DNA of 53,022 nucleotides, counting the filler, from Stramenopiles sp. TOSAG23-6 (lineage: Eukaryota), in the NCBI GenBank assembly GCA_900128565.1. It is 3 parts of 3 records of this genome, joined end to end, with 100 filler letters (N's around TTAATTAATTAA, not from the genome) between each part and the next. Parts side by side here need not be neighbours in the genome. Positions count along the whole stretch, not along the records: positions 35,507 to 53,022 come from LT636078.1; 2 more parts are not named here. One strand, 5' to 3'. How positions within the stretch are numbered: the stretch's first letter is position 1; every line of letters starts with the position of its first letter. The position numbers and the translations under genes were made by a program. The notes beneath the pieces are model-generated. The model had not been told where the DNA came from, searched no databases, and saw only the letters and a list, made by a program, of their open reading frames with translations. Shown here piece by piece: positions 718-53,022 of this stretch.

Positions 718-3700
718 TCATTTGAAGAAAAACGTCGTACAATGAACACCCAACATTTAGAATCGTTGACAAAAGCAAAAACTTCGTCCTCAAAAGCTTT
801 GGATGATCTTCGTGAAAAAAATGTGTTGAAACTCCAAGAACTTCAAAGTAAGCACAATCAGGAATTAGAAAGTATACAAAAGTCACATTTATCTTCTGTC
901 AGTAAATTGAAGGAAATTCATGTTTGTTTTCATTGTTCATTTCAATTTCAAATTTATTAATTTTTTTTCTACCAAACGTAAAACCTAACAAATTGTAAAT
1001 GTAAGACACATTTTTTCACTAATACATGCTACTGAAATAAAAGCAAAAGATAAATCGTATACTGCAAGTAAGCAACATGAAACAGATTTGAAATTGGAAC
1101 TCGCGAGAGCAAAAGAAGCTCATGCTACACTACAATCATCTATCGAAGAAAAACATACAAAAGAAATGGATTTGTGTAAGTTGAATCACATTGCAGCATT
1201 GTCAGCGAAGGAGAAAGAATATTCTTTGGCATTAGCCGGTAAGAGTGATGCTATGAATGCTTCCCATTCTACACAAGTAGCAATTGCGGAAGCTCAACGA
1301 GTTTCTGCAGAAGAAGCTCAACGATTATCCGAGGAAGAGCTCACAACTTTAAAAAAGGATTATATTGTGGTCGAAGAACGTGCAATGACAGCAGAGGCAG
1401 AATTGGGCGTCGTTCGTGGCGAACGGGATACTTTTAAATGTCGTTATGAACAAGAAGCTGCGAAGCAACAGTCCCGTTTAAATGAGGCTGCTCAAACACA
1501 AGCAGCTGGAATTAAATCGGAGCGACATCTGAAGGAAGCTTTGGCAAAAGTTAATGAATTAGAAGATATGGTAGAATTGTTAACTTTAGAGAAAGAAGAG
1601 TGCATTGTTGAAAAAGAAGTCGCCGAAGAAGAAACAGCTGATAAACAAACTCGAGTTGAAGAACTAGAAGCTGAGCTGCTCGCTACAAAAACAAATCAAC
1701 AACAAGTAGCAATGTCCGTTGGATCTGGGAATGATCCTGATATACAGGCAATCACCACACAAAATCTTCAACTTCGAGAAGCATTGGGAAAGTTACACAC
1801 TCAGACGACTGCAAAAAAAGCAAGTGATGGTCGTATAATTCGTGATTTGGAGCGGAAAGTTGAATTATTGGAAAAGTTGAAATCTGAAGTTGAAAATTTA
1901 CGAAAAACGAAAAAACAAATGGAAACTGAAATGTCTGAGTTACGCGATATGGTTGACGAATCTGCTGCGTATGAAGAGTTAGTAGAAGATCTTTCAGAAA
2001 AGAATCTTGAGCTTGGTGACCGTGTCGCTGAGCTTGAACAAGCTGTGAAAGAAATGGAAGAAATGGCCGAAGTCGCTGATGAAACTGATGAAATGCAAAG
2101 AGAATTAGAAATTGAATTACGTGCAGAAATTTCAAAAAAAACGGAGCAGTTGCGTTTGCTTGTAGATAATTCTGTGCAAATGAAAAAAGAAATTGAAGAT
2201 AAATGTGATACTCTCGAACAATTTCGGTCTGCTCTTACAGCACTACAACTAGATCGCACTAATCTTCATGAACAAATGACAACTGTTAAAGATGGAGAAG
2301 CGCAACGTGAAGAGAAGATACAGGAAGTTCTGAGTGATCAGATGAGTTTATTATCTATCAAACATCGAGAAAGGCAAACGTATATTCAACTTGCAATGTG
2401 CCAAGTGGAGCTTTTAGAGGCAGAAGGACGCGCATCTCAACTTCAAGCATATCTTCCTCGTGAGTTGATTCAACGAGATATTCCATCATTGGAAATTTTA
2501 TTGTTGTTGGAGCGTTTATCTGGTAAAGTTGAGGTTTTTCTTTCAAAAGTGAATGAATATTCTGTGTCTCCAAAGCGAATTGAAATTGAGGTTTCATCTG
2601 GAAGTATTGGTATCGAAGAGCTTCAAAAGCTCCGAGATGGTTGCACCATTGGTGTGCTTCTCTTGAAATTGCAGCGAGGTACGACGATGATGAATAATCT
2701 TTTGGTAAACCCAGAAATGAGTATTGAATTATATGCGTCTCTATCTTCCGAATGTCGTCGTCCATTTACAGATGCGGAGGTTGTTGTAGATCAATTGCTT
2801 GCAGCTTTAATGGAGGGAATTCCTTCATTACATTTAAAAACTGAGTTAGATCGTGTGATACTTGGTATAGAAAAATTTATCTCAGATCATCAAAAGACAT
2901 TTGATAGCGTCAAAAGAAAACAAAATGTTAAGACTCCATCCCTTTTGAAATCTTCTTCTCTTCATGTGTTGTCTGCGACTGCTGGTTGTTATATTGGGTT
3001 AATTCGATTAAACAAGAATGATGAAATGTTACCACCAGGAGATGATGTAATGCCATTTATAGTACAAGCAAAAGACTTATTGCAATCTTTGAAAACTGAA
3101 TATATTAGTGTTTGGATGGAAGCGGTTCGCTTATCTCAATTGATAAAAGTATCGAATCGTTCTGATCAACTCTTTGTGTCACTATTATCGCTCGTATTAG
3201 AAACTCATCGCTTCGCTTCTTTGATGAATGATGCAGTGAATAATATTGTTAGTGGTACGGACAGTGATACTGGCTCTCCAAGTTGGAACATATTATTGGA
3301 AGACATTGGGAAATTAAATGACTCTGAAGTCACTGAAGAGGAATGTACCGATTTGAATGAAGACAATGAAAATAATGTTAGTGCACGTAAATATTGTGCC
3401 GTTGTACAGAATCGATTAAAACTACTCGCCAGTGAAATATCAAAGTTACAAGGTGATGCTATAGAGAGTGAAACTCAAACACAAAAGAAAACACAAAATT
3501 TGGCTCCTTGGAAACAACGCGCTGTTCGTACGAGGAGTAATATCGCCCAGGTTAGCACAGTCCAGTCGCAACTAGAAGTAGCAAACAAAACGATACAGAA
3601 TCATTTGAAGGATCTTCGTCTTGCGGAAAAATCATCACGGAAAAAAAATGTTCAATTGTCACGACTTGAAGGCCAATTAGCTGAGGCTGCAAATCTTACT

Positions 3701-7038: not shown

Positions 7039-9032
7039 TTAAAAGCAAGAAAGAAAAGGAGATTTATTTTCACCTTCCTCTTTTTCAAATATTGCACGAG
7101 CATCCTGTAACTCAGAGAATGGAATGTCTCGTCCTTTGTCTTCTGCATTTCCTTCGCCTTCGCCTTTTCGCATATTTTTAATTCGCACACACTGTTTCGA
7201 CCATTCATCCGGTGCTACATATGCACAATATGTTGCACCAGCTCTATCAGCATATTTGAATGCTTTTTTCGCATCTTTCTTTGGTTGTAACATCAAATCA
7301 ACAGTTGCTCCACCAGACCGTAATTTTGCCGCAATAGAAACAGCTGCTCCAATCATCTCTTTTGACCGAGGGGCAACACAGAAATCGACAGTTCTGGGTA
7401 AACTCGGCATAAGATTATGATCTTTTAGTAACTCCATTATGACACAGTCACCAAACCCAAATCCAACACATGGAACCACTTTTTTAGATCCATAAAGAGT
7501 TAATAACTTATCATATCGGCCACCACCACAAATAGCTCTGAGCTCACCGCGTCTATCGAAACATTCCCAAACACATCCAGTATAGTATGCTAAGCCTCGA
7601 ACAACTGAAGCATCAAAGACTAGATAATCATGAAAACCGTACGATTCTGTATTATAAAAAAAAATAAAATGAAATTGTAAAAAAAATGAGTACGCCGTTT
7701 GAAATAATAATAATAATAAATACACAATGAACAATGATTGTAAATAGATGGAGCGCAATAAAATTAGACCCACATCATACCATTTAAATAGTCTGTGGGT
7801 CCACTCAACATGCGCTAACTTAATGTATGCATCACTAGTAAGTCGATTGTGTATATGTATTTCACTATTCACTGGATGCACTGAAGCCTCACGGTGAACA
7901 ATGTCATACGACACGTCAACTGTCGCAAATGTAATGCAATTGTTGATTTGTTTCAACACCAATATAGAAAAACAAAAAACTAATTACTATGAAATAATTA
8001 GTAGTATAACGTACCTGCAAGAGTAAACAAAAGCTTCAATTCTGAAAGAGCTTCATCGTCAATCATTTCTCCAACTGTTGACTCTAGTTCTTCGATCGAT
8101 TGCGCCTCGAGAGCGCAGAGCATGTCATCTGAAGTTTCAGAGGGAACACCTACTTCGATTAACATTTCCTTTACAGCATCTGCACCAATTTTATCTAACT
8201 TGTCAATGATTACACAGACAGGTGCAAACATTTCATCACTAATTCCATAACTCTTCATTAGGCTTCCAAGAAATTTTCTAGAGTTAATTTTGATGCCGAC
8301 GATATCTGGACCAACCCCAAGACCGCGAAAAAAGGCACATATTGAAGCAAGTAGTTCTAATTCTGCCATGATACTGTCATCCCCTACAATATCCATGTTC
8401 CACTGATAATGTTCGCGCTTGCGTCCCCGTTGACAGCACTCAAATCTCCAACACTGTGCGACGCAAAACCACTTAAAGGGCAAAAGATCCTTAATTTCCC
8501 CAGTGGCCGTCTCTTGACGAGCCATAACCATACGTGCTAAAGAAGGCGTCATTTCAGGACGTAAAGTAACAGCTTTCCCATCTTTATCTGTAAAAGAGTA
8601 CATCTGTTCTGTAATTTCTTCTCCTGCTTTGCGTTTGTATAGCTCCTGGTGTTCAAGCACTGGGGCGTCGTATTGTGAAAAACCAAATGCGCGTCCAACT
8701 TTAGCAAAGTGCTCAAAAAGCCAATTGCGAACACGCATATCTTGAGGAAAAAAGTCACGCGTACCACTTGGAGGATCTAAATAATATGGTTTTACTTCAG
8801 TCATTACAGCTGCAACAATTCCTTTTTCAATATTTTTGTTCGAGAGCTTTTTTTTTGTGACACCGAGGCGCGTGCGAAGTGAATCAAAGAAGATAGTTTT
8901 AGCCTCTTTTTGGGCAGGTAACACTTTCATCTGTTCAGGTGTAGGTTTGCCTTTGCCAGCGTAGTCACACATGGCGACAATTTCGGACCATTTGCGACGC
9001 TCATCAGCCGTTACGACTAATTCTGTAGTCAT
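7039..9032 (-). CDS. HARS1: Histidyl-tRNA synthetase; join(9032..8015,7646..7039)
   Basis: PPSGTRDF, LRPEMTPSLAR, QRGRKREHYQWNMDI, VRGLAYYTG, GGGRYD, GFGFGD and an anticodon-binding domain; one canonical intron. Confidence 0.95.
7647..8014 (-). other. Canonical GT-AG intron (368 nt) in HisRS
   Basis: GCAG|GTACGT..AATACAG|AATCG restores LFTLAESYGFHDYL. Confidence 0.85.
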
Positions 9033-9411: not shown

Positions 9412-11090
9412 ATGAATACGGGGCCTCCGCCCCAGCAGCCGAAAGTGCTACCAGCAGATATAGTTGTAGTCAAGGTCGAAGCTCCTCATGGTGATAAGTA
9501 CTGCTTAAGTTCGGCTTCTGGTCGAATTTATTGGCCTTATAAGACATTAAAAGATTGCATTTATGGTAAAGTCAAAGCAGCAGTTGAATTAGTTCAAAGT
9601 CCCGATGAACCCGGTGTTTTTAATATTACCAAAACGTATGTTGCTATTAAACTTATTCATAAAAAGGGGGCGAATATAGGCCTTCCCATTTCAACAAAAA
9701 TGTTTACGTCCCACGCTGAGAATCCTGTCACAGAGACGGCATATCAACAATATCTATCAACCCCTGGTTATCCATACGTGGCAAAAGTTGTTGAAGCATG
9801 TGAAAATGCTGAGGCAATGTTTGTCGTAATTGAGTACTGCAATCAGGGCGAATTGTTTGATGTGGTACAAAGTCGAGGACACCTCGACGAGAAGCTTTGT
9901 AAACGCTTGTTTATGCAAATTGTGCTTGGTGTTCATTATATTCATAGTAAAGGAATTGTACACCGTGATTTGTCTCTTGAAAATGTCATGGTACACAACG
10001 GAGATGCAAGAATTATTGATTTTGGGATGGCTACTCCACTTCCAGCTGATGGTCTTTTAGAAGGTTTCAGAGGTAAAGTATATTATATAGCGCCAGAGGT
10101 ATTTTACCATAGATATTTAGGAAAATACAAGGGTCCACCGATAGATGTATGGGCCCTCGGCCCCATGCTTCATATTATGCTCGTTGGTGCTCCACCTTGG
10201 GAAAAGGCTTGGGTACAAGATCAGAGATTTATCCGAGCTATCAATAATAAGCTACACGTCACACTGGAAGAATGGGGTGTGGAATTGTCTGAAGACTGTA
10301 TTAACTTAATGCAAGCTATCATGCAAGCTAAATTTACCCTTAAAATTAATCAAGGTAAAGAGGAACGTGTATATGTATGTTTTATTTTTTTTCAAATTCG
10401 AATTTTTTTTTTAGTAAATTTTGTACCTAACGATTTTAATTTTTGAAATATTTTTCCAAAATACATGGTTTAACTAATAGAAGGCTTTCTTTAGAAAGTA
10501 TTTTAATGCATCCATGGTTAGTACCCGTCAGAGATCTAATACCCACACATTTGCGCTGCGTACTAGAAGCCCCTCGCATATCCTCTGATAATGACAGTAC
10601 TATTGCATGTAAACCGAATATTTCTCAAAATGTTCAAAATATAAATGATGGTATGAGTAAAAATGTCGCCGCTGGTTCAGATGAAACTGACAGTGGTCCA
10701 ATCTTGCCGTTATTTAAATCACATTCTGCAGTTTTGCATGCAGTAAATACATTTGAAACTATTGAAGATCTGATCTCGCTAATCAAGCGTCTTCCCCCAC
10801 CAGTTAACCCCAGTTTCCGAAAGATGTTAATAAAATTATTGGCTAATCATGATATGAGTGTTGTGACAACAAGAGGGAGAGTTCGACAGCTTTTGATTGT
10901 CATTGTTGGTTGTTTGGCAGACATACAAATATATAAAGGTTGGCTAGAGCAGCGAAAAGTAGAAGGTGCTCTTAGTCAGAATCAAAATACTGGCGAAGAT
11001 CTTTTTACTGGTGTTGACGAATCAGATAGAGTATTAATGCTTCAACGGTGGATTTCGTGGCTTACTCGCCGGCAAAACATTTCCACTTGA
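9412..11090 (+). CDS. CAMK-like Ser/Thr kinase; join(9412..10374,10467..11090)
   Basis: VAIK, HRDLSLEN, DFG, YIAPE, DVWALG; subdomain XI RRLSLESILMHPW is recovered after removing 10375..10466. Confidence 0.9.
10375..10466 (+). mobile_element. Non-canonical repeated intron (GT..AT, 92 nt, phase 0)
   Basis: TAT|GTATGT..TTGTACCTAAC..AAAATACAT|GGT; restores the kinase C-lobe frame. Confidence 0.85.
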
Positions 11091-14324: not shown

Positions 14325-17056
14325 ATGCCAAGGCGAGCTACTAGCATGAAGATTTATGGTCGGCGTCGACGAAAAAAGCAACAGCCTTTAAACAAGTATG
14401 TAACTACGTTAACTGCGTGTGACGCTTTTGACTCTCTGACACCTTCGCCAGCACCACCACCACTTAAACGAAGCCCCCTCTCCAGAGATCTTTCATCAAG
14501 GAAGAGAACTCCCGTCGTCATTCGAGATGATTCACTTGTCCCTGGACAATTGTTGTCTCCAAATTCCTCATTCCCAGTTTATATGGATAATAATATTGCA
14601 ACCCCGCAAACCCCCTCAAATAAACAGTTTCGGTACCCCAAAATGGCACCTGAGCGAAATCCCTTCGCACCGGAATTAAAATATTCACAACCGCTTCGCG
14701 ATCTGGGCCAACAGCCTCATCAATTAAGCAATAAGCCCATGTTAAACACTATGGATATGATTAATGTACTACGAAAAAATGGCGCACATTTATCGCGGAA
14801 ATACAAAGTTACCCCCAACAAGCTACATTCTCAACCTAGCAGTCAAGGATATACACAAGGAAACACGAAATCAATGAAAGGATATACACAAGGAAACAAA
14901 CGAAAGAGTCCGTTCACGACAAATAATTCTTTTCGACAAACTCGAAGTACTACAAACAAACGAAAGAGTCCGTTCACGTCTAACCCTAACCCTAATTCTT
15001 TTCGACAAACTCGAAGTACTACAAGACGACGACTTGAGAAATCTGCAGAGAATAATAATATGATGTCTAGTATACTACTCACACCTACGAAAAACACGAA
15101 AAAGAGTCGTTTGGAGATTCCCATAATCAATAAAAAAGTAACGCAAAACATTCAAAACATCCAAAACATCCAAAAAATGAAAATCGTCAAGAATTCAGTG
15201 AATTCAGACGATCCAATTCAAAATGATATCGAACAAATTATTATACCATCATCTATTGGTTCTATTGATCCAATTGATTCATCAATAATACAATCATCTA
15301 TTGGTTCTATTGATCCAATTGATTCATCATTGGTTGATTCGTCTTCGTTCTCAAGTAATCAAAAAAAACAAAAAAAAACATTACATTCAAAACCAGTTAG
15401 CTCCAGCACAACTCGGAGAACAAAAACAACTAAAACAACAAAAACAACAAAAACAACTAAAACAACTAAAACAACTAAAACAACAGTACAATCAAAAAAA
15501 AGAATCACAAAAAAAAAAAAGATTGAGTTTAATTCAAATGTGAGAAGAAATCATTTCAAAAAATGTAAATATCAATGGTCAGTTACAAAATGTCTTGATG
15601 GTTCAACGAAAGTTTTTGATTGGAACAACATGGAAAATTGCAGTACAACTTCGAATACAAAAAATGAAACAATTAAAGATTGGATTGTTCATGTACGCCA
15701 TATCATTTTTTTGTCTATATTTTTTTCGTACGAAATTTTGTACCTAATAACAAACATCTTGTAATATTTTTTCACAATACATGTACGCTATATCATTTCA
15801 TTTCAAATTGTTTTTTTTCCTGTGCATAATTCAATGTTTTGTACTTGAATTTTATACTTAATGAATTTCGAATTTGACATGTTTTTTTTCTATACAGAGA
15901 GGATTGTCGCCAGCTTTATCTACTCTATGGAATGCTCAACAAATGTATGTTTTATTTTATTTTATTTTTTTTTTCCGGTAAAAAAAAAATCGATTTTGGT
16001 TTTTATAAAAATTTTGTACCTAACAATTTTTTTTTAGATTTTTGAAATATTTTTCCAAAATACATTTTTGTGAAACTCAAAGATAAACTTAATACAAATC
16101 CAAGGTATAAAAGCATCAGGTCAAAAACTACCGGTGATGAAAAAAGGTGTGAAAAACGCATTCAACAATTGAAAGCTTTGAGAGTGAATATTGATCAATC
16201 ATGGCTCTATGGAGTGTTTAAGCTGGAAGGAATTTCAAAGATACAAAAAGAAGAAGAGATAGCTATAAAAACTTTGGAGTGTCCAGTGGAATTGCGCTCA
16301 GCATCGATCTGTTCATATGGTGGTGCATCCTCTTCAATACTATCTGAAAATTCACGTGTATTCTATATAAATCATATACAGAAACAAGCACAATATTATA
16401 AACGACAACATCAACAAAAACTGAATGTAATGTACAATAATACCGACATGACCAAAAAACCAAAGCAGCAGCAAAAACATGAAAATAAATCGAATGTTGG
16501 TTTGAGTAAGGAAATGAATCAAAGACAACAAATAAGAATAGAAAATGACTTTCTTGAAAAGAATTCGAATAAAAATGTTTATTCAAATACGCAAAACACC
16601 AATAAAAAGTCATTTTTTGATACTCCAGATCAAAATGAAAGCAAAACCAAATCAAATAGTTTTTTTTCTTCGTCACCTGTATTAGTCAATACAACACCAA
16701 TCGTAACATCAAGCTCAAATATAGAATCGAAAGAAATGATTGCAGATAAAAGAGATGAAAACCAAATCGTGCAATTACCTCTCAATGTATGTTTTATTTT
16801 TTTTCAAATTCGAATTTTGTTTTGTACGAAATTTTGTACCTAACAAATTTTATTTTTTTTTTTTAAATATTTTTCCAAAATACATGCCAATGTAAATTAT
16901 GCTAGTATTATAGAAAAGCAAAAAGTAAAAAACCAAAAAAGTGAAAATAAAATTATAGAAAAAACAATTGAAGAACTTAATTCGCCAATCAATGATCAAA
17001 ACCAAACGAATTCGGAAAGTTATAGTTATGGACATGATCCTATACGCTCAAGCACC

Positions 17057-17100: not shown

Positions 17101-17131
<31 letters not shown>

Positions 17132-17650
17132 ACAGTATATTTGGAAGAGAAGAAGCAATCTTTGAAAACATTTAGAAAAAGAATGAAAAAGGTTTCAAAT
17201 GGTATAGATGAATTAGATCAGAAAGATATACAAATTTCACTACTATCTCACCGTCCTCGTATGATTGATAGCTCAACACAAATAATTACCAGAAAAAAAT
17301 CAGCAAAGACTCAAACTTGTGTAAAAACAGTCAATGCATCATCAAATACTAGTATAAAGAGCAATGCAGTAATGACTCAAACTTTTGTAGATACAGTCGA
17401 TACATCATCGAATACAATGACAAAGAGGAATTCTTCTGTGTATACGAATACAGATGTACGTTTTCAATTTCGAATTTCGATTTTTTTTTTGGTACGAAAT
17501 TTTGTACCTAACAATTGTTTTTTTGAAAATATTTTCCAAAAATACATGCTATACAACATGTCGATCAAAGTTGTAATACAACTCCTGTAATAAAACCTAT
17601 TATGAAATGTAACTCGACATGCACTGAACAAAAACAGTTTAAATGTGTAT
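14325..17650 (+). CDS. Uncharacterised low-complexity protein, 3' partial; exons 14325..15692, 15898..15944, 16066..16786, 16886..17455, 17548..17650
   Basis: Frame is continuous across all junctions when the repeated introns are removed; TTK repeats and poly-Asp; runs into the contig gap. Confidence 0.65.
15693..15782 (+). mobile_element. Non-canonical repeated intron (GT..AT, 90 nt) abutting a GT-AG intron
   Basis: CAT|GTACGC..TTCGTACGAAATTTTGTACCTAAT..CACAATACAT|GTACGC. Confidence 0.75.
15783..15897 (+). other. GT-AG intron (115 nt) related to the repeated family
   Basis: GTACGCTATATCATTT..TTTTGTACTT..TATACAG|AGA; frame continues RGLSPALSTLW. Confidence 0.7.
15945..16065 (+). mobile_element. 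Non-canonical repeated intron (GT..AT, 121 nt, phase 2)
   Basis: CAAAT|GTATGT..GTACCTAAC..AAAATACAT|TTTTGTG gives QQIFVKLKD. Confidence 0.8.
16787..16885 (+). mobile_element. Non-canonical repeated intron (GT..AT, 99 nt, phase 0)
   Basis: AAT|GTATGT..GTACCTAAC..AAAATACAT|GCC; contains an in-frame stop, so it must be removed. Confidence 0.85.
17057..17131 (+). repeat. (GAT)n microsatellite encoding poly-Asp
   Basis: About 25 GAT units with one GCT interruption. Confidence 0.9.
17456..17547 (+). mobile_element. Non-canonical repeated intron (GT..AT, 92 nt, phase 0)
   Basis: GAT|GTACGT..GTACCTAAC..AAAATACAT|GCT. Confidence 0.8.
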
Positions 17651-17734
17651 GTATGTTTTATTTTTTTTTTTGTATGATGTTTTTTTCGTACGAAATTTTG
17701 TACCTAACGATTTTTTTTTGAAATATTTTTCCAA
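17651..17734 (+). mobile_element. Non-canonical repeated intron, truncated by contig end
   Basis: TAT|GTATGT..TTCGTACGAAATTTTGTACCTAAC..TTTTTCCAA, then gap. Confidence 0.8.
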
Positions 17735-17834
17735 NNNNNNNNNNNNNNNNNNNNNNNNNNNNNNNNNNNNNNNNNNNNTTAATTAATTAANNNNNNNNNN
17801 NNNNNNNNNNNNNNNNNNNNNNNNNNNNNNNNNN
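17735..17834. other. Artificial contig spacer
   Basis: 44 N + TTAATTAATTAA (stops in all frames) + 44 N. Confidence 0.95.
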
Positions 17835-17930
17835 TTTTTTTTTTTACCAAAAAANTCGATTTTTTTTCGTACGTAATTTTGTACCTAACAAATTTTAGTT
17901 TTTTTTTTTAAATATTTTTTCATAATACAT
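17835..17930 (+). mobile_element. Non-canonical repeated intron, 5' end lost in the gap
   Basis: TTCGTACGTAATTTTGTACCTAAC..CATAATACAT|CTTCC. Confidence 0.8.
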
Positions 17931-19587
17931 CTTCCCATGATTCTGCTGAAAGAATTCCTCTTAAAGAAAGGAAGAACACAATCACTAGTTTTTCTCGTAG
18001 TGCTGCTGGTTCAACTGGTTTTTTAAATGCAAAGAACATAAATCCAAGTTTTTCTCGTAGTGCTGCTGGTTCTCCACCTCGCATTCGTCGAAATATGAAG
18101 AATACATCACTTCACGAAATTAGGGGACATGAGATTAAAACTAAAAGATCAAACAAAACATCTGGGTCGATGAGAATACGGCAGAGATTGACAAGGCAGA
18201 ATGTTCATCATCTTGGTACAGGTCCACGTTACCGCAGTATGTTAATGTACGTTTTCATCATGAATTTCAAATTTATTTATTTTTTTTGTATGAAAATGTC
18301 GTACCTAACGATTTTTTTTATCCACAAAAAAAAACAATATTTTTCACAATTTATTAACCCTGGTCGCAGTCTTGTATTTGGTGTTGGTGATCGTATATTT
18401 ATACTAGCGCAAAATGTAAGACAGCGAAATGATGTACTTGAATGGTGCACTGAAATAGAAGAAAGTGTTAGACGAATGTACGTTTCATATGAATTTCTAA
18501 TTTAAGTTTTTTTTTTCATACGAAATTTCGTACCTAACGATTTTAATGTTTGAAATATTTTTTCATAATCCATGATTTTGGTATCATTAAACATGTTGGG
18601 AATCCTGCGCTCATTGTCAAATCTATTAATGAAAAGAATATAAAAGAAGCGACTAAGAATATCTTTGGGACGGACCAGGTCACACTTTTACGAATAGTGG
18701 TAAAAACACTAATTGGTGGAAGCTCTGGTTATGTCATTGACCCACGAGAGTACTTAGGAGCACCAGAAACTGATAGTTTTTGTGCATTTTCTATTCCTAT
18801 GCCAAACACAGTAGCGTTTAAGGTCCAGGAAGCAACCAAACCACAGCGTCAACGGTTATATACTCCATACACAAAGACGATTAATAAACGTATGGAGACA
18901 AGTGAAGGTCATATGACTAGTTGGACCAACAAGCTTCAATTCCATGCATATTATTCATCCCTTCCAGGTACAGATCGATTTGATGTGTATTGGAAGAGAG
19001 ATGGAGCGACACGTAATTATTTCAAGTGTGCTCGTAAGGCCGCAGATCCTTGGGGTTGGTTCTTTATGTATTCATTTTATGCATATCCACTGGTTCGTAT
19101 TGACGTGTATAAATCACTGAAAACAGAACATACGTACTATTTTAGTGGTAGTGAAAAGATGACAAATATACCACCACCTGACCCTGAAGAATTTGAACAT
19201 GAGTTTTCATTCTATGCTCTACAATATCAAATGACTGGAACTATCAACTTTAACTGCATGCATACCGACAAAAGACAAGTTGGTGATGATCCGGGTATTA
19301 CACGATCACTTAGATCGCGATGCAGTTCCGAAGCACCACATTCCATATGGGAACATAACTGCCAATTTTATGCTTTTGATACACCAATACGGGGCACTAA
19401 TCGATTACAAATTCAGATATCTATTGATGACCCAGTAAGATATCGTATTACGCCAGAATTTATGATAAAAGGTCCATGGAGACATCTCAATACAGTTTAT
19501 GTTTTAGGAATTGTATCCCCAGATGCTGTAAAGTTTGCCCATGGTGCACCAGATCCTGGAAAAGCTTTGTCAGCACTGGTTTCATAG
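17931..19587 (+). CDS. 3' part of a gene with a BK/Slo K+-channel-like tail motif and an unknown C-terminal region; exons 17931..18246, 18355..18477, 18570..19587
   Basis: Spliced RYRSMLINPGRSLVFGVGDRIFILAQ resembles the RCK2 end of Slo channels (RYVITNP....L...D.IF.L). The family call rests on this one motif. Confidence 0.5.
18247..18354 (+). mobile_element. Non-canonical repeated intron (GT..TTTAT, 108 nt, phase 2, stop-free in frame)
   Basis: TTAAT|GTACGT..GTACCTAAC..CACAATTTAT|TAAC gives MLINPG. Confidence 0.75.
18478..18569 (+). mobile_element. Non-canonical repeated intron (GT..TAAT, 92 nt, phase 2)
   Basis: CGAAT|GTACGT..GTACCTAAC..TTCATAAT|CCATGAT joins to ORF 18550 (RIHDFG); the 3' end was chosen by frame. 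Confidence 0.65.
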
Positions 19588-35406: not shown

Positions 35407-35506
35407 NNNNNNNNNNNNNNNNNNNNNNNNNNNNNNNNNNNNNNNNNNNNTTAATTAATTAANNNNNNNNNNNNNNNNNNNNNNNNNNNNNNNNNNNNNN
35501 NNNNNN
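35407..35506. other. Artificial contig spacer
   Basis: 44 N + TTAATTAATTAA + 44 N. Confidence 0.95.
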
Positions 35507-35640
35507 TATACTAAAATATATTTACATTTATTACAAAAAACTACAGATTAAAAAATATTGTTTTCGATCTTTGACCTTCAACATTATTTTTATACGCAGA
35601 TATATATATACTAAAATATATTTACATTTATTACAAAAAA

Positions 35641-38600
35641 CTACAGATTAAAAAATATTGTTTTCGATCTTTGACCTTCAACATTATTTTTATACGCAGA
35701 TATATATATACCATACTTTCTAAATTTTTCTAGTCCTTCCAAAAGATACTTATGAAAATTAGTAGGACTGAAAACAACTGCATGATCGATCCTCCACCGT
35801 TTAGTGTCAACTTCCTCTATAAATATTGCAAATTTTGTTACAAATTGTGCTGACATTTTAAATGTTACCACTGCACCTAATTTTGAAACGTGCACAACTA
35901 CATTATTTGGTTTTGTAGAATGAAATTTCGTATCTAATGAATTTCGAATTTGTTGGGTGTCAACGTCTGACACTACTTCTTTGGCATTGTCCTTACGTTT
36001 GGTTTTATCATTGGTTTCATATCTATTTTTAAGCACCTGACCTACCCATGTAATATTCAATAAGGAAAAATCACTACGACCATATATATTTGAAGCAGTT
36101 ACACGAAAAGCGTATCTACGACCGAGTTGTAATCCATTGACCACAAGTGGGCTATTGAGTCCCTCGGATGCAACAACATCAGATATAAACACAGTATACA
36201 TGGTAATGGGGGCACTTCCATTTGATATCGGCTGACTAAATGAGACAATACCTCGATCTCCTTCACATTTTACGAATACATCTGTAGGAGGCAATGGAAC
36301 TGAAGAAACAAAAATATTCTTACTATTGGACATCTCACTTCCACCTGCAGAATTATACGCGCGAAGAGATACAGAATACATTTCATCAAGCAAAAGACCT
36401 AACTTTTCAATTTTATATGAAAGATCATTTGGGGCTGTACTTTTTGTAACTATCTCTACAAATGAAACATCCTCTTTTTTTTTTCTTATTATTATTGATA
36501 AAACGTATTTAGTTACAGCATCCCCACCATCATTAGTTGAAGGCTCAAAAAATACGACGATGCCAGATTGTGATTTAATTTGTTTGACACTCAAAATATT
36601 TGGTGCAAGAGGGACACCAAAAGGAATATACAATGATACTACATCACTTGATGGACCATGTCCAACAGAGTTGAAGGACTGCACAGTAAATAGACATCTA
36701 ACATCTCGAGGAAAATTTGGTATATCAATAATTGATGTCAAAGAAGTCTCCAGTGTTTTGGTAATTGTTACAGTGTTTTCTTCAACATAAGTGTGACCTT
36801 TATTTCGAAGGCGATCACATTTCCAATGTATAATATGTCCTAATAATTCTGTACTTGAAGATGGTTTTGGTACAATTAAATTTGTCTTGTGAAAAATTTG
36901 GACTCGCACGGTCGCGGGATCTTTTGAATCCGTCAAAAAAGAGGCTTCTACTTTATGTGCCTTCAATGGTAACTTTGTGTCAGACTTTGTGCATATACCT
37001 GATACTGTATTTTTATCATACAACCAGGATCCATGAGTTGATTTACCTTCATTTATTGCTGTTGCTTTAGACCACATTGCACATTTATTTGACATGCCAG
37101 GAATTATATATTCACCATTAAAATAAGTATAAACATAACACCAGTGGTACATATTACATAGCTTTGCACACAGTACACTTGATGAAGAATTTTGCCATTT
37201 ACCAATTGTCATTTCATCTTTAGCGTTTGCATTGAAATACATAACCTTTGAACAATTATCAGGCAATTCAGAATCTCGAGCATATTGACAATGACCAACA
37301 GTAGCACCATCCTGGGGAAACCATGAGTTTGAATCAAATCTATTGTGTGAAGTAGCTTCAACATCATCCCAAATAACACAACGCTGTTTCCATATATCAG
37401 CAATTTTTGAATGGCCGTTACCATGAAACGTAAACATTCGACATTGATTTTCTTTACAGTATTTGATACAGCCAGTAATGGATACATATTTTGGAAACAT
37501 AACTGGGTCTAATTTCTTAAAAAGTACAGCACTATGATTAAATGTGTATGTATTTTGGAAAAATATTTGAAAAAAACCCGTTAGGTACAAAATTTCGTAC
37601 GAAAAAACATCGAATTTGAAAAAAAATAAAACATACATGAACATTTTGGTGTTGCAGGTATAGCTTTAATTTGTCTAGAATGGATACTTCGGCCTACTTC
37701 ATTAATACTCGAGACATATACGAAATATTCTTTATCGTCTTGTAGATTTTCTATTATCCAGCCTTCATTTACTGGAGGAGCATTAGGTACATGAATATGC
37801 TGCATTTCACCAGATATCCCAAATTGATAAGATATTTGATACTTTTTAATCGGATTGCCACCATTGTGTAGAGGTGGTTCAAAGAAAACGTACAATATAT
37901 TAGATCCAGGAATTACTTTTACATTCATGGGTGCACCAGGTAGCGCAGGAGGTCTCTTTGATATTGATCGTTTTCCTCGTCCTAATTGATTTGATGCATC
38001 AATAAAGAATATATATGATTTATTGACTAATAATTCTTCTATATCAACTGGACTGCCAATTGTTTTTATTGTTTTTACATCAGTCTCACCCCGAGTCCAA
38101 AAGGTCACAAAATATTCTATAATAGGATAGCCACCATTGTATTCCGGTGGTTCAAAATAAACAGTAGTTTTCCCATACCCTGGTTTACTTCTTTGAATTG
38201 GAGTAATATGAGTAATATTTGGTTGACTCGGTGTTGAATATGTTGTCTTTACAAAAACATTATGAGATAGTTTACTCATACCAATGATATTAATAGCTCG
38301 TATAGTGATCTCATATATTGTGTTATTATCTAAATTTTTTATTAATACAGAATGATGTAAAGGATCAGCCGCTGTCGTTGAATTTGCTTTATTTTCTATA
38401 TTTGCTACATTTAAATGATTTATAATAGTATTTCTCTCTTTTGTATTCGTATAAATTATATAAGATGTGACTTCTCGGAGACCAAATGATTTTGGAACAT
38501 CGAAAAAAATCTTTACACTGTTTGATCGTGGTATTGCACGAAGATTTCGTGGAGGTGATAAATTGTGAAAATATATATACATTTGTTTTCGTTTTAAAAA

Positions 38601-41150
38601 CAATCATTAAAAATGAATAAAAAGAAATGTAGGTGCAACATTCATTTTTTGTACAAACATACATGGTACTGTGGGTTTACGAAATGGATTTAAGTATAAA
38701 TTCCGACGTCTTCCTTTTTTGTTTATCTGAAATTCAACTTGTCGAATCCATACATTAAATCCTTCTCCAGAAACGAAAATACTGCTGTCATCATGTATTG
38801 TGAAAAAAAAATATAAAATTTGTTAGGTACAAAATTTTTATAAAAAAAAAAAATAAATTCGAAATTGAAAAAAAAATAACATACACCTGTATCAATACTT
38901 TTTCCAGAATCTGCATATATTATTTGTTTTGTTCGTACGGTCACACCATCTTTATCTGGGATGCCTTCATCTAAATATACGACAAGTGACTTTGATTTAT
39001 GGGAATAAATACAACCAGCAGATTCCAATGTATTTTGGAAAAATATTTCAAAAAAATATCGTTAGGTACAAAATTTACTATAAAAAAAAACTCATACAAA
39101 AAAAAAATAATACATACATGAGTCGACACTTCGATGATGAGATGCAAATTGATCCATTGGTGAATCTTCCAGTTCATCAAAACAGCTACTTTCAAGCATC
39201 GTGCGATTAAATATCCCGAAATAATTTCCATTTGTAGAAGAAAACATTATTTGATTATATGGAACATGATCAAATCGACGACTAAAACTATTTTGAGATT
39301 CAGGGTCGTCTTCAAAATCACCATGTATTGTAGAAAAAAATATTTTTAAAAAATTCGTTAAGTACAAAATTTCGTACGAAAAAAAAAATAAATTCATTAT
39401 GAAAACGTACATACTCTTCAGAACCATTGAGTGCATCAGATGCAATATGCCACTTTGGATATGCTGGGGAAAAGTGCAAATACAATGGTAATTCTGATGG
39501 AGAATACAAAGTATCCATTAGTGTCATCGTAGACATTTTTGATACATTATTGTTTTGTATTTTACGTAATATCATACCATTCTCAATGCCTTCATTTTCA
39601 GCTTTGGAGTTTTCAATTACAGACGTTACTACGAAGCCATATGAATCCGTGGATTCAATAGTACATCCTATATCAAGGATACCGGTAGGTGAATTTATTT
39701 CAACTTCAATGAAACTAGTACTAGAAAAACGAAACGACGTGTCATTATTATNATCCTTATTATTATTATCAAACATATCAAAATCTGTTAAATGTGCGCG
39801 CCGGACAAGAGCCCATCCACCACCATCTAGTGTACCATCAGCTGCACTACCCGTTAAAGGAATCGTTGGAGTAGTAAAATCCATAATAAAATACGGTTTG
39901 GCACATTCTAGGTAACTAATGTCCTGACATGGTTTTGGAATCTTTGTTGAACAAATGAGTAATGCAAAATCGGAATGCAAAGCTCCTCCTTCCAGCCCAT
40001 TGACAGAGATTTCCCCCCACGTTCCTGGAGTAGCAACATTTAACTGATCAACATCAATTGAAGAAGAATGGCATAATCGATCACTATGTTTTGGTTTGCC
40101 TTCAATAGCATAAATAACAGTTGGTAATGGAAATTGTGGATCACTATCAGGTACGAAATACTTGAAAACAACAAATGAACTTCTTATTCTCTTCACGCGA
40201 ACACCACGTACATTTTGTGGTGGTCTTTCCACTTTACCAGAAAGACAAAAATTGGGACGTTTACAACTTAAATCAACCGGGTCAGGAAAATCATCCCAAA
40301 CACGATTTGCATTAATTCTTTTTTTTACCCGAATTCCCGACATGGACATTATTTCCCAGCAATATTGCCATCCTTCAAATGCACCATCTTGCCAATAAAA
40401 TTTGCGGATTAAAATATTTTCAAAACCAAATGAAGCTTTGCCTTCTCTTTTACGCTGTTCTTGCTCTTCACGAAAAAAACTATTTTCTTCGTTTTTTGCA
40501 CGCAAATCTTCTTCTTTAGTAAATTTTCTACTCGATGTAGTTTGACTCTCATCATACCGAGCTCTCTTTTCAGGATCCTTTAAGATTTCATACGCTTCAG
40601 AGATTTTAATGAACATTTCATTTGCATATTCTTTATCTTCACCTGGTTTGATTTTATCAGGATGCCATCGTAGCGCAAGAGTTTTATACGCTTTTTTGAT
40701 TTCTTTTAATGTTGCCGTTTTCTCTACCCCAAGTATTATATACGCATCATCATCATCATCATCCATTTTATCCATTTTTTCCTTTGTGACTTCGACATCT
40801 TCTTCAATACGCTGAAGGAATATTTGTAAATATTTTGGACCTCCTTCTGTCATCCAACCTAATAATTGTTTGGCATTGATACAATCATATTTTGCCTTTT
40901 CCCAGAAATTCATTTGTAAATAAATTTGTGCACGAATTAGGTGTAATTCTGCACATATTTCACGATTATCCTGATCAACATTTACGAGAGCTCCACTTCC
41001 AAGAAAAATGTGAATAGCTTTACTACAATCTTCTATCCCCTCATTTGTAACTTTATTTCCATTTTTAATTATCTCGTGTCTGACTTTACAAGATTTTACT
41101 AATAAATTTTGTCTCGTAAGAAATGAAATATGATTACCTCCTAAAAGTTG
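35641..41150 (-). CDS. TPR + DnaJ + PDZ-like + FN3/PAN-like multidomain protein, 5' end unresolved; exons ~41150..39411, 39322..39118, 39027..38885, 38792..38663, 38557..37637, 37547..35641
   Basis: [23 protein letters not shown]-domain; FN3 starts [38 protein letters not shown]; all five junctions keep frame. Confidence 0.8.
37548..37636 (-). mobile_element. Non-canonical repeated intron (GT..AT, 89 nt, phase 1)
   Basis: TCAT|GTATGT..GTACCTAAC..AAAATACAT|AC gives KCSYTFNH. Confidence 0.85.
38558..38662 (-). mobile_element. Non-canonical repeated intron, diverged (GT..TTTAT, 105 nt, phase 1)
   Basis: CCAT|GTATGT..GCACCTAC..CACAATTTAT|CA gives the FN3 start TVPSPPRNL. Confidence 0.8.
38793..38884 (-). 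mobile_element. Non-canonical repeated intron (GT..AT, 92 nt, phase 0; upstream exon ends GT)
   Basis: GGT|GTATGT..GTACCTAAC..CAATACAT|GAT. Confidence 0.85.
39028..39117 (-). mobile_element. Non-canonical repeated intron (GT..AT, 90 nt, phase 1)
   Basis: TCAT|GTATGT..GTACCTAAC..AAAATACAT|TG gives VDSLESAG. Confidence 0.85.
39323..39410 (-). mobile_element. Non-canonical repeated intron (GT..AT, 88 nt, phase 0)
   Basis: TAT|GTACGT..GTACTTAAC..CAATACAT|GGT gives NGSEEYGDF. Confidence 0.85.
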
Positions 41151-41304
41151 TTTGTAATAAATGTAAATATAATTTTTTTTAAAATTTAATGTAAATATAA
41201 AATGTAATGTAAAATGCAAAATGAAGTGCGTAAAAAATAAAAAGACGGCGCAGAATCGAACTGCGTTGTATAATTTGATTATAGCAGTTCGACTAAAAAT
41301 ATTG

Positions 41305-43560: not shown

Positions 43561-43936
43561 TTCAAAACCCTTTAGTGAAATATTTATATCATGTAGTTGA
43601 ACGAATTCACAGTCAAATCATTCTACGTTTATTAAATGCAGATAGGTAATAGGGAAACACAGGATAAAAAATAAAGTGTAGAGAGCTATCCATATACTAG
43701 TAAATTCGATTTTCGATTTGAAAAATTCTTGGGTTAATTTTGAAAAAAATGTATATATACTGATGTTGACATCAACAGCTATCGGATGGATATTACTATA
43801 TTAATCGTATTTTGACGCAAGTGCATCTTTCAAAATAGATTTATTTTTTTCTACTATGTAGGGTATATTGATTCAAAAAATTATGTAATTTACTATTAAT
43901 ATCAGTTTCTTTCTTAGAAACTCAATGTGTCTATAT

Positions 43937-45769: not shown

Positions 45770-45862
45770 GTATGTTTTATTTTTTTTCAAATTCGAAATT
45801 TTTTTTCGTACGAAATTTTGTACCTAATGAGTTTTTTTTTGAAATATTTTTCCAAAATATAT
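45770..45862 (+). mobile_element. Non-canonical repeated intron at a chimeric junction (93 nt)
   Basis: GATAT|GTATGT..GTACCTAAT..AAAATATAT|TTT; phase-2 donor against phase-0 acceptor. Confidence 0.75.
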
Positions 45863-46808
45863 TTTGGTGTCAAATATCTTGCAAAAACGTATAAAGTGCA
45901 ATTGAGATGGGTGAATACAAATAGAATGCTTGCGTTTGAAATTCTTGCACATGCAATAATAGTACGTTTTTTCCCCAAAACACATTTTTTTTCTCTATTT
46001 GTTTTTTTCATAGACAATTTTGTACCTAATAAAAAAAATATTTCAAAAAGAATATTTTTCACAATAATTGCACAAGGAGAAAGTCTTACAAATAATACAG
46101 TTCCATTTGACTGGCCATTACTTCCGTGTGAATGTATGTTTTCAGGATCAAATTTAAATTCATTTTTTTTCGTACGAAATTTTGTACCTAACAAAAAACA
46201 ATTGAAAATATTTTCCCAAAATTTATGCGATCTAGTACTAAACATGTGTCGCTATATTGAACGACGGTATCTTCGAGAAATATTGATTAATGAAACCTCA
46301 GAAGATGATCTGTCNAAATCATTTAGTACTGCTAAGAGTACTTGGTGTGAACATGGATGGGTAGACATGGTTGAGAATGAAGAAGCAAAAATAGATGTAA
46401 TTTTTTATCATTCATTTATTTTTTTTTTGTTTTGTAAAAAAGATTTTGTAAAAAAGATTTTGTACCTAACGAATACAATTTGTACAACCAAAAAAAACAA
46501 TATTTTTCACAAAACATTCAAAAGAGGAAAACAGTAAAAAAATAGAAAATGATATTCGGAATACTGGATCAAACGTAGTAACAAATGCCACAATGAAATA
46601 TCGCGACAATACTAAAACAAAAAATCACTCTTTCAAACAGTATTTATCAGCAGATTCTACGGAAAGTATAGAAATGTCTTATACAATTAGTGATCAAAGA
46701 CCGAAACTGAAGTTGAGAAGACGTGCTTCTTTGAAAGAGGCAGCTATTTGTGCAGATGCAATGTTTAATAACATAGCAAAAGCTTCACAGAAATCTAAAA
46801 CAAAATAA
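45863..46808 (+). CDS. 3' part of an uncharacterised gene; exons 45863..45961, 46070..46133, 46227..46396, 46518..46808
   Basis: Continuous frame after removing three repeated introns, ending SQKSKTK*. Confidence 0.55.
45962..46069 (+). mobile_element. Atypical repeated intron copy (108 nt, boundaries uncertain)
   Basis: CAATAATA|GTACGT..GTACCTAAT..CACAATAATT|GCA; CAATAAT direct repeat near both ends. Confidence 0.55.
46134..46226 (+). mobile_element. Non-canonical repeated intron (GT..TTTAT, 93 nt, phase 1)
   Basis: GAAT|GTATGT..GTACCTAAC..CAAAATTTAT|GC. Confidence 0.75.
46397..46517 (+). mobile_element. Non-canonical repeated intron (GT..AT, 121 nt, phase 0)
   Basis: GAT|GTAATT..GTACCTAAC..CAAAACAT|TCA; joins in frame to ORF 46593. 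Confidence 0.8.
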
Positions 46809-46951
46809 ATGTATGTAATTAAGTTTTACTATTTTTGTTGTTTATTTATGAATTGACTTTTTGAATGGAATTCTGGAATAACGATGATTTCACCTGTCAT
46901 ATGAATCTAAAAGTATTTATCTACACGACAACTATGTATACGTATATTATA

Positions 46952-49322: not shown

Positions 49323-51215
49323 ATGTATACCAACATGATTCGGTTTCTAGTAAAAAGTGTGCCATCATTTCTAAAGGGCGACAAGAAATGGCTTCATATT
49401 AGGCAAGGTATACATGGCCAAACATGTAGGACTAAGAATAATAATAATGATATTGATGATGAAAATTTTCTTCTCCTACTATCCAATTCGCAGGAAACAT
49501 CTCCCGAAGTTCTTTCAGCCTTTGCAGTACGCGTGAAGGAAACAATACCGAATATTGATGCGCTATGCGCCGTGAATCTATTGAATTCAGACGAGAGTGT
49601 AATTATAGATGTTCGATCACCTTCTGAGTTTTTATCAGGTCATATATGTAACGCATTCAATGTTCCTTTATTTTCAGATAAAGAACGTGAATGCGTGGGT
49701 ACAACTTTTAAGACACGAAGTCGTGAGAGTGCTCTGACTGAAGGTATGGATATTGTTAGGCCGAAATTGTCAAAATTGAAAGAGAAGGTGGCGGAGCTTC
49801 TGGGCGGTCAGCGCAAAGTTGTTATCTACTGTTCGAGGGGTGGCATGCGATCTCACTCTTTTGCGTTTCTACTTCAACGCCGTTTGCCAAGTGCAAAAAC
49901 ATTTGTATTAACTGGTGGATACAAAAGCTTTAAAAGATGGGCGCGTGAGATGTACTGCTACGTGCCAAATAGTGCCGGATACTCCTGGGCTCGAGAAAAC
50001 ACACATGTGTTGAAAGAAGCTGACATGACCACAACTCACATGGATAGTGACATTGAAAGTGATCGTGCACTACTTCAATTTGTGAAAGGTAAAAAGCTGA
50101 AAAAGTTAATTCAATTACGCGAAGCGGTAAAGAATCCGAAATACATGGAAAGAATGAACAAAAAGAGAGAGCAAAACGTTAGAAGAAAGAACTTGAAAGG
50201 AGAAGACAACACTATGCTGCTGCAAGATGGTGCAGCTCGTCGCGCTGCAACTAATGAGAAAAGGTTAAAACAATTCGAAGGGGATTTGATTACTGAAGTA
50301 AAGAAAAATTTAGCTAAGAAAAAAAAAGAGAAACAAGAAGAAGCACTAGCTGAAGCCCAATGGCCGATAAACTATCCTTCAAAACAACCAAAAGTTATCA
50401 TTATTACAGGCAGAACTGGTAGTGGGAAAACAAGGATTATTCATGCTCTAAGAGACAAACTTGGAAAACAAGTCTTAGATTTAGAAGGAATAGCTATGCA
50501 CAATGGCTCAGCATTTGGGTCAATAGGCCATGGGAATCAGCCAACAAAACAGCAATTTATGAATAATATTGCCATTGAATGGTCGCGTTTAAATGAAAAT
50601 GAGGTTGTATTTATCGAAGATGAAGGGCCTAATATTGGCCAGATTAACTTACCGCTTGGTTTATATCGTTTAATGCAAACCGCGCCTATCATTATCAAGC
50701 TTGTTGTACCGCGTGCTTCTCGTCTCTCAATTTTAATTCAAGATTATGTATGTTTTATGTTTTTTCAAATTCAAATTCGAATATTTTTTATAGTAAATTT
50801 TGTACCTAACGATTTTTCTTTCAAATATTTTTCCAAAATACATGTAGGAGCTGCAGATATAAATCGTGATGAAATGACATCAATAGAGTATGCAAATAAC
50901 ATTAAAATCAGTAAACCATCTGCTGATTGGTTCGAGAAAATGGCTAATGCAACTCGAACATTAGAACGTAGACTTGGACGTGAGCGTTGCAATGAAATGC
51001 TTGAATTACTCGCTGGAAGTAATTTTAGAGATTTTGCAGACAAGGCTTTACATTATTATGATAGACTTTACGATAAACAAATATTCAGAGAAACTAGAAC
51101 TAGTGGCGGTAGTGTCATGGTAGACGTTGTAGTTGATCCTGCATGCACTGATATGAATATTGAAGAGGTTGCAAAAATGGTTATTAAAGAAGTTGACAAA
51201 TTAAATCAAAACTGA
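49323..51215 (+). CDS. selU: tRNA 2-selenouridine synthase (SelU/MnmH)-like; join(49323..50747,50844..51215)
   Basis: Rhodanese DVRSPSEF..GHI..NVPLF, YCSRGGMRS, GGYKSF; P-loop GRTGSGKT, LDLEGIAMHNGSAFG, FIEDEG, YYDRLY. Confidence 0.88.
   Translation: MYTNMIRFLVKSVPSFLKGDKKWLHIRQGIHGQTCRTKNNNNDIDDENFLLLLSNSQETSPEVLSAFAVRVKETIPNIDALCAVNLLNSDESVIIDVRSPSEFLSGHICNAFNVPLFSDKERECVGTTFKTRSRESALTEGMDIVRPKLSKLKEKVAELLGGQRKVVIYCSRGGMRSHSFAFLLQRRLPSAKTFVLTGGYKSFKRWAREMYCYVPNSAGYSWARENTHVLKEADMTTTHMDSDIESDRALLQFVKGKKLKKLIQLREAVKNPKYMERMNKKREQNVRRKNLKGEDNTMLLQDGAARRAATNEKRLKQFEGDLITEVKKNLAKKKKEKQEEALAEAQWPINYPSKQPKVIIITGRTGSGKTRIIHALRDKLGKQVLDLEGIAMHNGSAFGSIGHGNQPTKQQFMNNIAIEWSRLNENEVVFIEDEGPNIGQINLPLGLYRLMQTAPIIIKLVVPRASRLSILIQDYVCFMFFQIQIRIFFIVNFVPNDFSFKYFSKIHVGAADINRDEMTSIEYANNIKISKPSADWFEKMANATRTLERRLGRERCNEMLELLAGSNFRDFADKALHYYDRLYDKQIFRETRTSGGSVMVDVVVDPACTDMNIEEVAKMVIKEVDKLNQN
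50748..50843 (+). mobile_element. Non-canonical repeated intron (GT..AT, 96 nt, phase 0, stop-free in frame)
   Basis: TAT|GTATGT..GTACCTAAC..AAAATACAT|GTA. Confidence 0.8.
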
Positions 51216-52970: not shown

Positions 52971-53022
52971 ACGTATTGTGAAAAAATATTTCAAAAAAAA
53001 ATCGTTAGGTACGAAATTTCGT
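52971..53022 (-). mobile_element. 3' half of a repeated intron ending ..AATACGT
   Basis: ACGAAATTTCGTACCTAAC..CACAATACGT|GTTGCG. Confidence 0.8.

Follow-up and report, generated by a model that had tools for sequence, protein, structure and literature searches.

Probable mobile introns with a candidate GT...YAT splicing register in a MAST-3-type marine stramenopile

The AG that closes an intron is among the most conserved signals of eukaryotic genes, so that large-scale exceptions to it are both rare and informative. Two described systems bear on the case considered here, the 3'-AT splicing of Fritillaria being the nearest precedent. In marine protists, introners bring a 5' splice site of their own and recruit the 3' site out of the duplication made at insertion, according to the accessible part of a 2022 study (PMC9860276). 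In the Fritillariid tunicates, 3'-AT is the commonest acceptor, with 34% in Fritillaria borealis and 44% in F. pellucida (Soo et al. 2026, PMC13326754). The accessible text of this second report describes the introns as derived from transposons, removed in the U2-type manner and provided with a 3' splice site by the target duplication. Their last three bases are almost always YAY and the same triplet often precedes the 5' site; the ambiguity of the borders was met there too and was resolved by unambiguous cases (PMC13326754). For Fritillaria borealis, the available portion of a review (PMC11282704) connects a TAC that precedes the intron in the exon with how the 3' site is formed. We describe here a family of about 20 repeated elements, 90-120 nucleotides (nt) long, in a window of 53,022 nt from Stramenopiles sp. 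TOSAG23-6, the window being the whole stretch of DNA that was analysed. The elements read GTAYGT ... TACCTAAC ... AATACAT and have AT on each side. We propose that they are probably spliceosomal introns derived from a small mobile element (an introner), which would have spread in the genes of a MAST-3-type stramenopile and would be cut as GT...YAT by the major spliceosome.

A family profile for nhmmer, built from segments bearing TACCTAAC, gave 21 matches in the window at E<1e-3, and these fall in at least seven genes. The 17 complete copies measure 88-121 nt and share a mean pairwise identity of 0.72 (136 pairs). Many similar copies are thus found at unrelated positions in unrelated genes, as is the case for introners, and about 18 of the roughly 20 introns recognised in these 53 kb belong to the one mobile family. 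The 20 in-gene matches, without exception, share the strand of the open reading frame (ORF) that they interrupt. The motif TACCTAAC occurs 16 times in the window against 0.97 expected, a count reached in none of 100 shuffles, and it is present exactly or with one base changed in 16 of the 17 copies. In 16 of the 17, its branch A is separated from the 3' end by 30-48 nt, a distance of the U2 type and not of the U12 type. The copies combine this branch site with a U2-type GT donor of extended consensus and with a U-rich tract. A target duplication of 2 bp fits the AT found on both sides (17 of 18 5' flanks and 18 of 19 3' ends). The inverted termini of the element are limited to GTAT/ATAC, four bases, and no autonomous partner was seen in the window. 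The consensus fold of 12 copies contains four pairs, all internal (-0.77 kcal/mol), and no structure joining the intron ends. Outside the window, two metagenome pattern scans for further copies returned 0 and 118 stretches; nhmmer on the 118 gave no true copy and three marginal ones.

Exact removal of most copies, each together with one AT, restores the reading frames of the genes that carry them. In the frame test, applied to 18 copies with 150-nt flanks, a copy passed if a 100-codon frame was kept. Thirteen passed, and one more did so with flanks trimmed to the neighbouring introns, which brings the singly validated copies to 14 of 18; the length is divisible by 3 in six of these. Three other copies keep the frame only within composites, at 15693-15897, 17651-17930 and 45770-46068. 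In a minus-strand gene with DnaJ, PDZ, FN3 and PAN domains, cutting the five short AT-rich segments 39410..39323, 39117..39028, 38884..38793, 38662..38558 and 37636..37548, four of which are the repeated family, yields an open frame of 1741 codons, whereas every frame closes if the same five are retained. In a second gene (14145-18477, plus strand), removal of six segments leaves a single open frame of 1142 codons. For the segment at 15693-15897, this frame is obtained only by removal up to 15897, where the sequence ends TATACAG. At 45770-46068 an intact frame requires removal of the whole 299 nt as one GT...AAT intron. Finally, three plus-strand copies (18247-18354, 46134-46226 and 50748-50843) have lengths that are multiples of 3 and are free of stops in the host frame, so that their retention would add no more than 31-36 residues.

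RNA was sought in two seawater metatranscriptome runs, in which 5-6% of the sampled words were found. Both runs include short exon contigs that differ by 0-3 letters, which indicates that the same or a near-identical organism is present and fits a marine planktonic host. Contigs fitting two places of 35507-53022 number 616 of 1277 and 609 of 1296 in the two libraries, and since about half of the contigs do so, family sequences are plentiful there. Predicted splice junctions were not found among the 15 joints listed of 35, these joints connecting one family copy with another. In run X2, one contig (record 9) spans 38662-38838 unspliced and crosses the 3' border of intron 38884..38793 at 38793. 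This contig and the three stop-free copies could be taken to mean that the copies are not spliced from RNA, and are either excised at the DNA level, like the TA-bounded eliminated sequences of ciliates, or simply insertions in dead or mis-assembled genes. The duplicated dinucleotide flanks, of which one copy is retained, also recall the ciliate sequences. However, DNA excision does not require the sense orientation found in 20 of 20 in-gene matches, and the donor, branch site, U-tract and spacing are spliceosomal and match the verified intron of the window described below. Moreover, exact removal alone restores the 1741- and 1142-codon frames, and the genes are therefore not decayed. We consider this explanation highly improbable.

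If the copies are introns, the question is where they are cut. Because AT flanks both ends, cutting at GT..AT or two bases upstream at AT..AC gives the same mRNA for symmetric copies, as the first-pass annotation had recognised; the AT is found in 17 of 18 readable 5' flanks, while it represents 9.6% of the dinucleotides of the window. At the other end, AT is the last dinucleotide of 18 of 19 readable ends and GT that of the remaining one. None of the 19 copy ends is AG, which closes only the composite 15693-15897 and an intron of a histidyl-tRNA synthetase gene. G at +1 and T at +2 are present in all 18 copies, A at +3, G at +5 and T at +6 each in 17, and the full donor hexamer GTAYGT in 15. 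The final T is found in 19 of 19 ends and A at -2 in 18, while -3 has 15 C and 4 T and -4 has A in 15; among the last seven positions, conservation is lowest at -4 and -3, the AC of the shifted register. The last three bases are YAT in 18 of 19 ends and CGT in one, composite 45770-46068 ending AAT, and the downstream exon begins with G in 11 of 19. Read as GT..AT, all copies begin with G and close with T. Read as AT..AC, they would begin and close with A/C, A/T or G/C depending on the copy, and in four of them -2 would become T or C. GT-AG and AT-AC introns alike have A at position -2, and GTAYGT fits the pairing consensus of U1 and U6, which ATGTAT does not.

The synthetase intron, 8014..7647, is the sole ordinary intron of the window verified by homology. 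Its borders are fixed by LKLLFTLA/ESYGF, which matches P0002, 3hri and 3hrk, and this homology-fixed GT-AG intron of 368 nt rules out two shorter candidates, a 35-nt GT-AG and a 53-nt GT-AT. Its donor, GTACGT, is the hexamer of the family, and around its acceptor it reads ATACAG where the family reads ATACAT, a difference in the last base only. A search for a family match to this intron gave none, so that it is independent of the family. Hence the GT..AT register is the better reading and, in our judgement, likely the right one, because GT and the final T are invariant, -2 and -3 are conserved, and the verified GT-AG intron shares both the donor and the acceptor context. The first-pass annotation had proposed GT..AT introns with a YAT acceptor, distinct from ordinary U12-type AT-AC introns. 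This is still the best-supported reading and the verified intron adds to it, the register itself being one that we infer.

The same gene gives the lineage of the host. P0002 (EukProt label GSMAST32.ASY1.ANO1.1997.1) is letter for letter identical to the synthetase exons of the window, minus the segments that its model skips. The model (gene 7039-9110, minus strand) passes over two stretches, one of 23 residues (CWRFECCQRGRKREHYQWNMDIVG) and one of 11 (VDFCVAPRSKE), which are open in the frame of the window and align to solved homologues, and it is probably wrong at both. The next relatives, at 50-59% identity, include stramenopiles (Pelagomonas, diatoms, Aureoumbra) and a chlorarachniophyte. 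Among solved histidyl-tRNA synthetases, chains 3hri and 3hrk, which we take to be trypanosomatid proteins, match at 1.6e-73 and the human cytoplasmic enzyme at 1.1e-25. From the label GSMAST32, we read the host as a MAST-3-type marine stramenopile. An affinity with tunicates, considered for the Fritillaria-like 3'-AT introns and for FGD-like atlas neighbours listed as Chordata and Nematoda, is rejected on the synthetase E-values and on the identity to the GSMAST32 model. Affinity with diplonemids is likewise rejected, the non-canonical introns of that group being C/G-rich and devoid of a branch motif in the accessible part of the source (PMC12621601).

A few copies break the symmetry and allow the two registers to be compared directly. 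As had been reported earlier, the copy at 38884 has GT upstream, so that the junction codon is GGT or GAT according to the register. Its context is ACAGGT/GTATGT...CACAATACAT/GATGAC; its removal keeps the 1741-codon frame, and all frames close if it is left unspliced. The predicted complementary DNA at 38886/38792 is ACAGGTGATGAC (ACAGGT/GATGAC) for GT..AT and ACAGATGATGAC (ACAG/ATGATGAC) for AT..AC. Searches for homologues across this junction, made with the downstream exon, gave no match at near length and, at greater length, only FN3-repeat relatives that stop short of it. The three TTTAT ends of the first-pass annotation (18354, 38558 and 46226), which have AT and no AC, are indeed present. 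Intron 38662..38558 is the strongest of these cases because its in-frame stops force removal, and removal restores the frame. In all, five of 19 ends are without AC, among them 18573 (ATCCAT) and 45862 (ATATAT), neither of which is frame-validated.

Several observations weigh against the GT..AT register or against the introns that carry it. AC is intact in 14 of 19 ends and AT in 18 of 19, a difference that is not significant alone in so small a sample. Intron 38662..38558 is a marginal, divergent member of the family, missed by the first nhmmer search and matched at E=0.003 by a model containing it, and the two other TTTAT copies, 18247-18354 and 46134-46226, might be tolerable unspliced. The copy at 18478-18573 is the sole failure of the frame test among the 18, and two copies work only as parts of composite introns. 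For a G/U pair as first and last intron bases, we know of no citable precedent beyond the 3'-AT introns of tunicates. Finally, the copy cut by the window end closes with ACGT: AC is kept and the A of AT is lost, which mirrors the 38886 variant. The exon that follows starts with V-A-C-L-V-F-E-L-A-T-G-D of an SRPK-like kinase, and Ser precedes V-A-C in 134 of the 135 motif-bearing homologues among the 150 best relatives; one of them, an 84%-identical relative, reads DMWSVACLVFELATG. The 5' flank of this copy lies just past the window end. An AT..AC cut gives A/GT, that is Ser, for any 5' flank, whereas a GT..AT cut needs a GT flank. A GT target is the simplest history of this edge copy because the sequence before insertion must encode W-S-V, and it would leave the copy uninformative rather than contrary. 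The earlier claim that natural variants favour GT..AT holds in part: its conclusion is the best-supported reading, but the argument is weaker than it had seemed, given the small difference between the AC and AT counts, the ACGT edge copy, the two tolerable TTTAT copies and the marginal standing of 38662..38558.

One alternative is that the same introns are cut by the major spliceosome two bases upstream at both ends, as AT...AC, or loosely, as AT..AC, TG..CA or GT..AT copy by copy. With AT on both sides (17/18 and 18/19), most mRNAs would be the same; the edge copy, which keeps AC and loses AT, would give its Ser without any assumption on the flank, and the element proper, GTAT...ATAC, is symmetric, so that insertion favours neither register. 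However, the five ends without AC include 38558, which must be spliced, and the copy at 38884 would become a GT..AC intron. In addition, ATGTAT is a poor match to a 5' splice site, whereas the GTAYGT found two bases further in is the donor of the verified GT-AG intron, and the first and last bases would vary by copy, with T or C at -2 in four of them. We regard such a cut as unlikely.

An AT-AC register also raises the question of the minor spliceosome. The lineage of Blastocystis stands near MAST-3. According to the accessible part of its description, Blastocystis has a minor spliceosome with all four minor small nuclear RNAs (snRNAs) and 346 U12-type introns, typically AT-AC (PMC5608401), which is a further point against a GT..AT cut. 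The copies could then be U12-type AT-AC introns of a lineage in which the minor snRNAs and the motifs have drifted, multiplied by a mobile element. Massive expansion of minor introns is possible, as in Physarum (10.1101/2020.10.12.336362, in the part available), and at 6 of 8 positions TACCTAAC agrees with TCCTTAAC, the U12 branch consensus. Against this, the U12 donor RTATCCTT occurs ten times in the window (4 expected; none of 100 shuffles reaches 10) and never within the copies, and TCCTTAAC occurs once, outside them, in agreement with the absence of both motifs from the copies reported by the first-pass annotation. The one RTATCCTT site inspected, at 39675-39682, belongs to coding sequence (T-G-I-L-D). 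With the register shifted, the copies begin with ATGTAYGT, which is not a U12 donor, and five of 19 ends are without AC. The distance from branch to 3' end is roughly 10-20 nt in U12-type introns, compared with 30-48 nt in 16 of the 17 copies. No Rfam family matched anywhere in the window, snRNAs of every kind included. A U12-type origin appears very unlikely to us.

The preferred GT...YAT reading leads to the following model. The element would have the form GTAYGT...(T-rich)...TTTTGTACCTAAC...T-rich...AATAC, placed between two copies of a 2-bp target that is almost always AT (17 of 18 readable pairs). It would carry its own 5' splice site, GTAYGT, a TACTAAC-like branch site, TACCTAAC, and a U-rich tract. 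The acceptor YAT would be made of the last base of the element followed by the AT of the target-site duplication, and would differ from the ATACAG of the host by one base, U in place of G at the last position. The U2-type spliceosome would most likely cut before GT and after the duplicated AT; removal at the RNA level and use of the major spliceosome are both what the sequence leads us to infer. The element may have spread by DNA transposition or by reverse splicing. Table 1 gives the coordinates of the copies and of the related features.

Table 1. Coordinates of family copies, composite introns and reference features along the window.
Feature	Coordinates	Strand	Details
Family copy	922..1027	+	GTTTGT donor, AACCTAAC branch motif, ends TAATACAT
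Canonical GT-AG intron, 368 nt, histidyl-tRNA synthetase gene	7647..8014	-	CAG/GTACGT...ATAATACAG/AA
Family copy	10375..10466	+	within protein kinase gene
Composite GT..AG intron	15693..15897	+	family-like copy 15693-15782, then directly GTACGC...CTATACAG
Family copy, 121 nt	15945..16065	+	1142-codon frame
Family copy, 99 nt	16787..16885	+	1142-codon frame
Family copy, 92 nt	17456..17547	+	1142-codon frame
5' half-copy and 3' half-copy, two 44-N runs between	17651..17930	+	in frame as one removal; gap lengths arbitrary
Family copy, 108 nt	18247..18354	+	ends CACAATTTAT; stop-free in frame if retained
Family copy	18478..18573	+	ends CATAATCCAT (ATCCAT); not frame-validated
Host gene of five minus-strand introns	35641..41078	-	domains DnaJ, PDZ, FN3 repeats, PAN
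Family copy, 89 nt	37548..37636	-	frame test
TTTAT intron, 105 nt	38558..38662	-	AT/GTATGT...CACAATTTAT; without AC, without TACCTAAC
Family copy, 92 nt	38793..38884	-	GTATGT...TACCTAAC...CACAATACAT; sole complete copy with GT upstream flank
Exon flank GT (AT in 17/18 copies)	38885..38886	-	junction codon GGT Gly (GT..AT) vs GAT Asp (AT..AC)
Family copy, 90 nt	39028..39117	-	frame test
Family copy, 88 nt	39323..39410	-	GTACGT...TACTTAAC...CTACAATACAT
Two family copies, 99 nt apart	45770..46068	+	45770-45862 ends ATATAT; 45962-46068 ends AATAAT
Family copy, 93 nt	46134..46226	+	ends CCAAAATTTAT; stop-free in frame if retained
Family copy	46397..46517	+	GTAATT donor, ends CACAAAACAT
Family copy, 96 nt	50748..50843	+	no in-frame stop if retained
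3' part of family copy cut by window end	52971..53022	-	ends CACAATACGT; next exon GTT GCG TGT (V-A-C, SRPK-like kinase)

Some of these loci call for additional remarks. Downstream of the copy at 18478-18573, the 1142-codon frame coming from upstream stops 24 codons past the junction, and an ORF of 346 codons (18547-19587) lies in another frame, the two being joined only if both AT copies are removed; the end of a gene, an indel or a different cut are candidate causes. A gap pattern of 44 N, 12 bases and 44 N (100 positions) occurs twice, at 17735-17834 and 35407-35506, the first splitting two family copies, and about 40 isolated single N are scattered across the window. The host of 45770-46068 is, by eye, a cullin-like ORF, and the 99-nt spacer has one open frame that may be due to chance. 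A degenerate family match with TACCTAAC (6831-6953, plus strand, E=1.2e-8) is located between the ends of the synthetase gene and of a TM7S3-like ORF, in apparently non-coding sequence. The C-terminus of the SRPK-like kinase (52614-52970, minus strand) has P0135 as its closest relative (84% identity over 118 residues, long Ala/Gly/Pro-rich N-terminal part); either this relative is a GC-rich one, or the gene call is chimeric. Elsewhere in the window, an ORF of 957 codons (11147-14020, minus strand) encodes the N- and C-terminal domains of a NodU/CmcH-type carbamoyltransferase (Pfam E 4e-15 and 2e-47).

Introners are known and 3'-AT splicing is known, but a GT-AT introner that has otherwise textbook U2 signals and accounts for almost every intron recognised over a stretch of a MAST-3-type genome appears to be unreported. 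In the literature searched, supplementary data aside, repeated introns that are GT-AT or flanked by AT were not found described for MAST lineages. In the accessible portions, a single-cell genome paper on MAST-3/-4 mentions introns only in its methods (PMC5778133), and a 2026 preprint on MAST genomes gives intron proportions only (10.64898/2026.04.17.719054). A broader proposition, to which we give even chances, is that the major spliceosome of this lineage routinely accepts U as the last intron base, and that most introns of the genome are young GT-AT introns produced by one introner, with the AT duplication as acceptor. If so, large-scale 3'-AT splicing would have arisen independently a second time, after the Fritillariid tunicates, and this would be the cleanest case so far because a single base of the canonical signal set would have changed. 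Altered proofreading of the 3' splice site or altered recognition by U2AF1 would then be implied in the lineage. GT-AT splicing would also mean that an abundant, uncultured predator of the ocean tolerates, genome-wide, an acceptor altered by one base. A direct comparison with tunicates could then address what has to change in the machinery (U2AF1, second-step factors), and whether the burden of introners drives the change. Such splicing would also explain the failure of standard gene callers on such genomes: gene models built on GT-AG rules would be wrong there, and P0002 already omits two aligned stretches.

The comparison with known systems can be summarised as follows; for each cited system it holds for the part of the source that is accessible. 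The copies resemble the introners of marine protists (PMC9860276) in being short non-autonomous repeats that form precise introns, take one splice site from the duplication and leave the length of the mRNA unchanged. However, those introners use GY-AG sites and duplications of 3-9 bp, instead of the 2 bp that give AT here. The introner elements of Amoebophrya are also repeated non-canonical introns of a marine protist, with direct repeats overlapping the exon-intron borders (Farhat et al. 2021, PMC7789003), but they have inverted repeats of 8-20 nt, variable termini and no conserved donor, whereas the copies have GTAT/ATAC, a strong donor and a strong branch site. With U12-type AT-AC introns such as those of Blastocystis (PMC5608401), they share termini that can be AT...AC in the shifted register, but they differ from that type in donor motif, in branch motif and in lacking its short distance between branch and acceptor. 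They also differ from the nonconventional introns of euglenids and hemistasiids, whose borders vary and whose ends are drawn together by extensive pairing, since the borders of the copies are uniform and no terminal helix is predicted. Compared with the Fritillariid introns (PMC13326754), whose main classes are AG/AC and AG/AT with weak, G-rich 5' sites, they start with GT in 18 of 18 cases. The duplication is there the 3-nt YAY and here AT only, the base before the upstream AT being C or T in 10 of 18, and the host is a stramenopile protist, not a larvacean tunicate, in which U2AF is duplicated. Nevertheless, the two systems have in common last three bases of the YAY type, which are YAT in 18 of 19 ends in this family.

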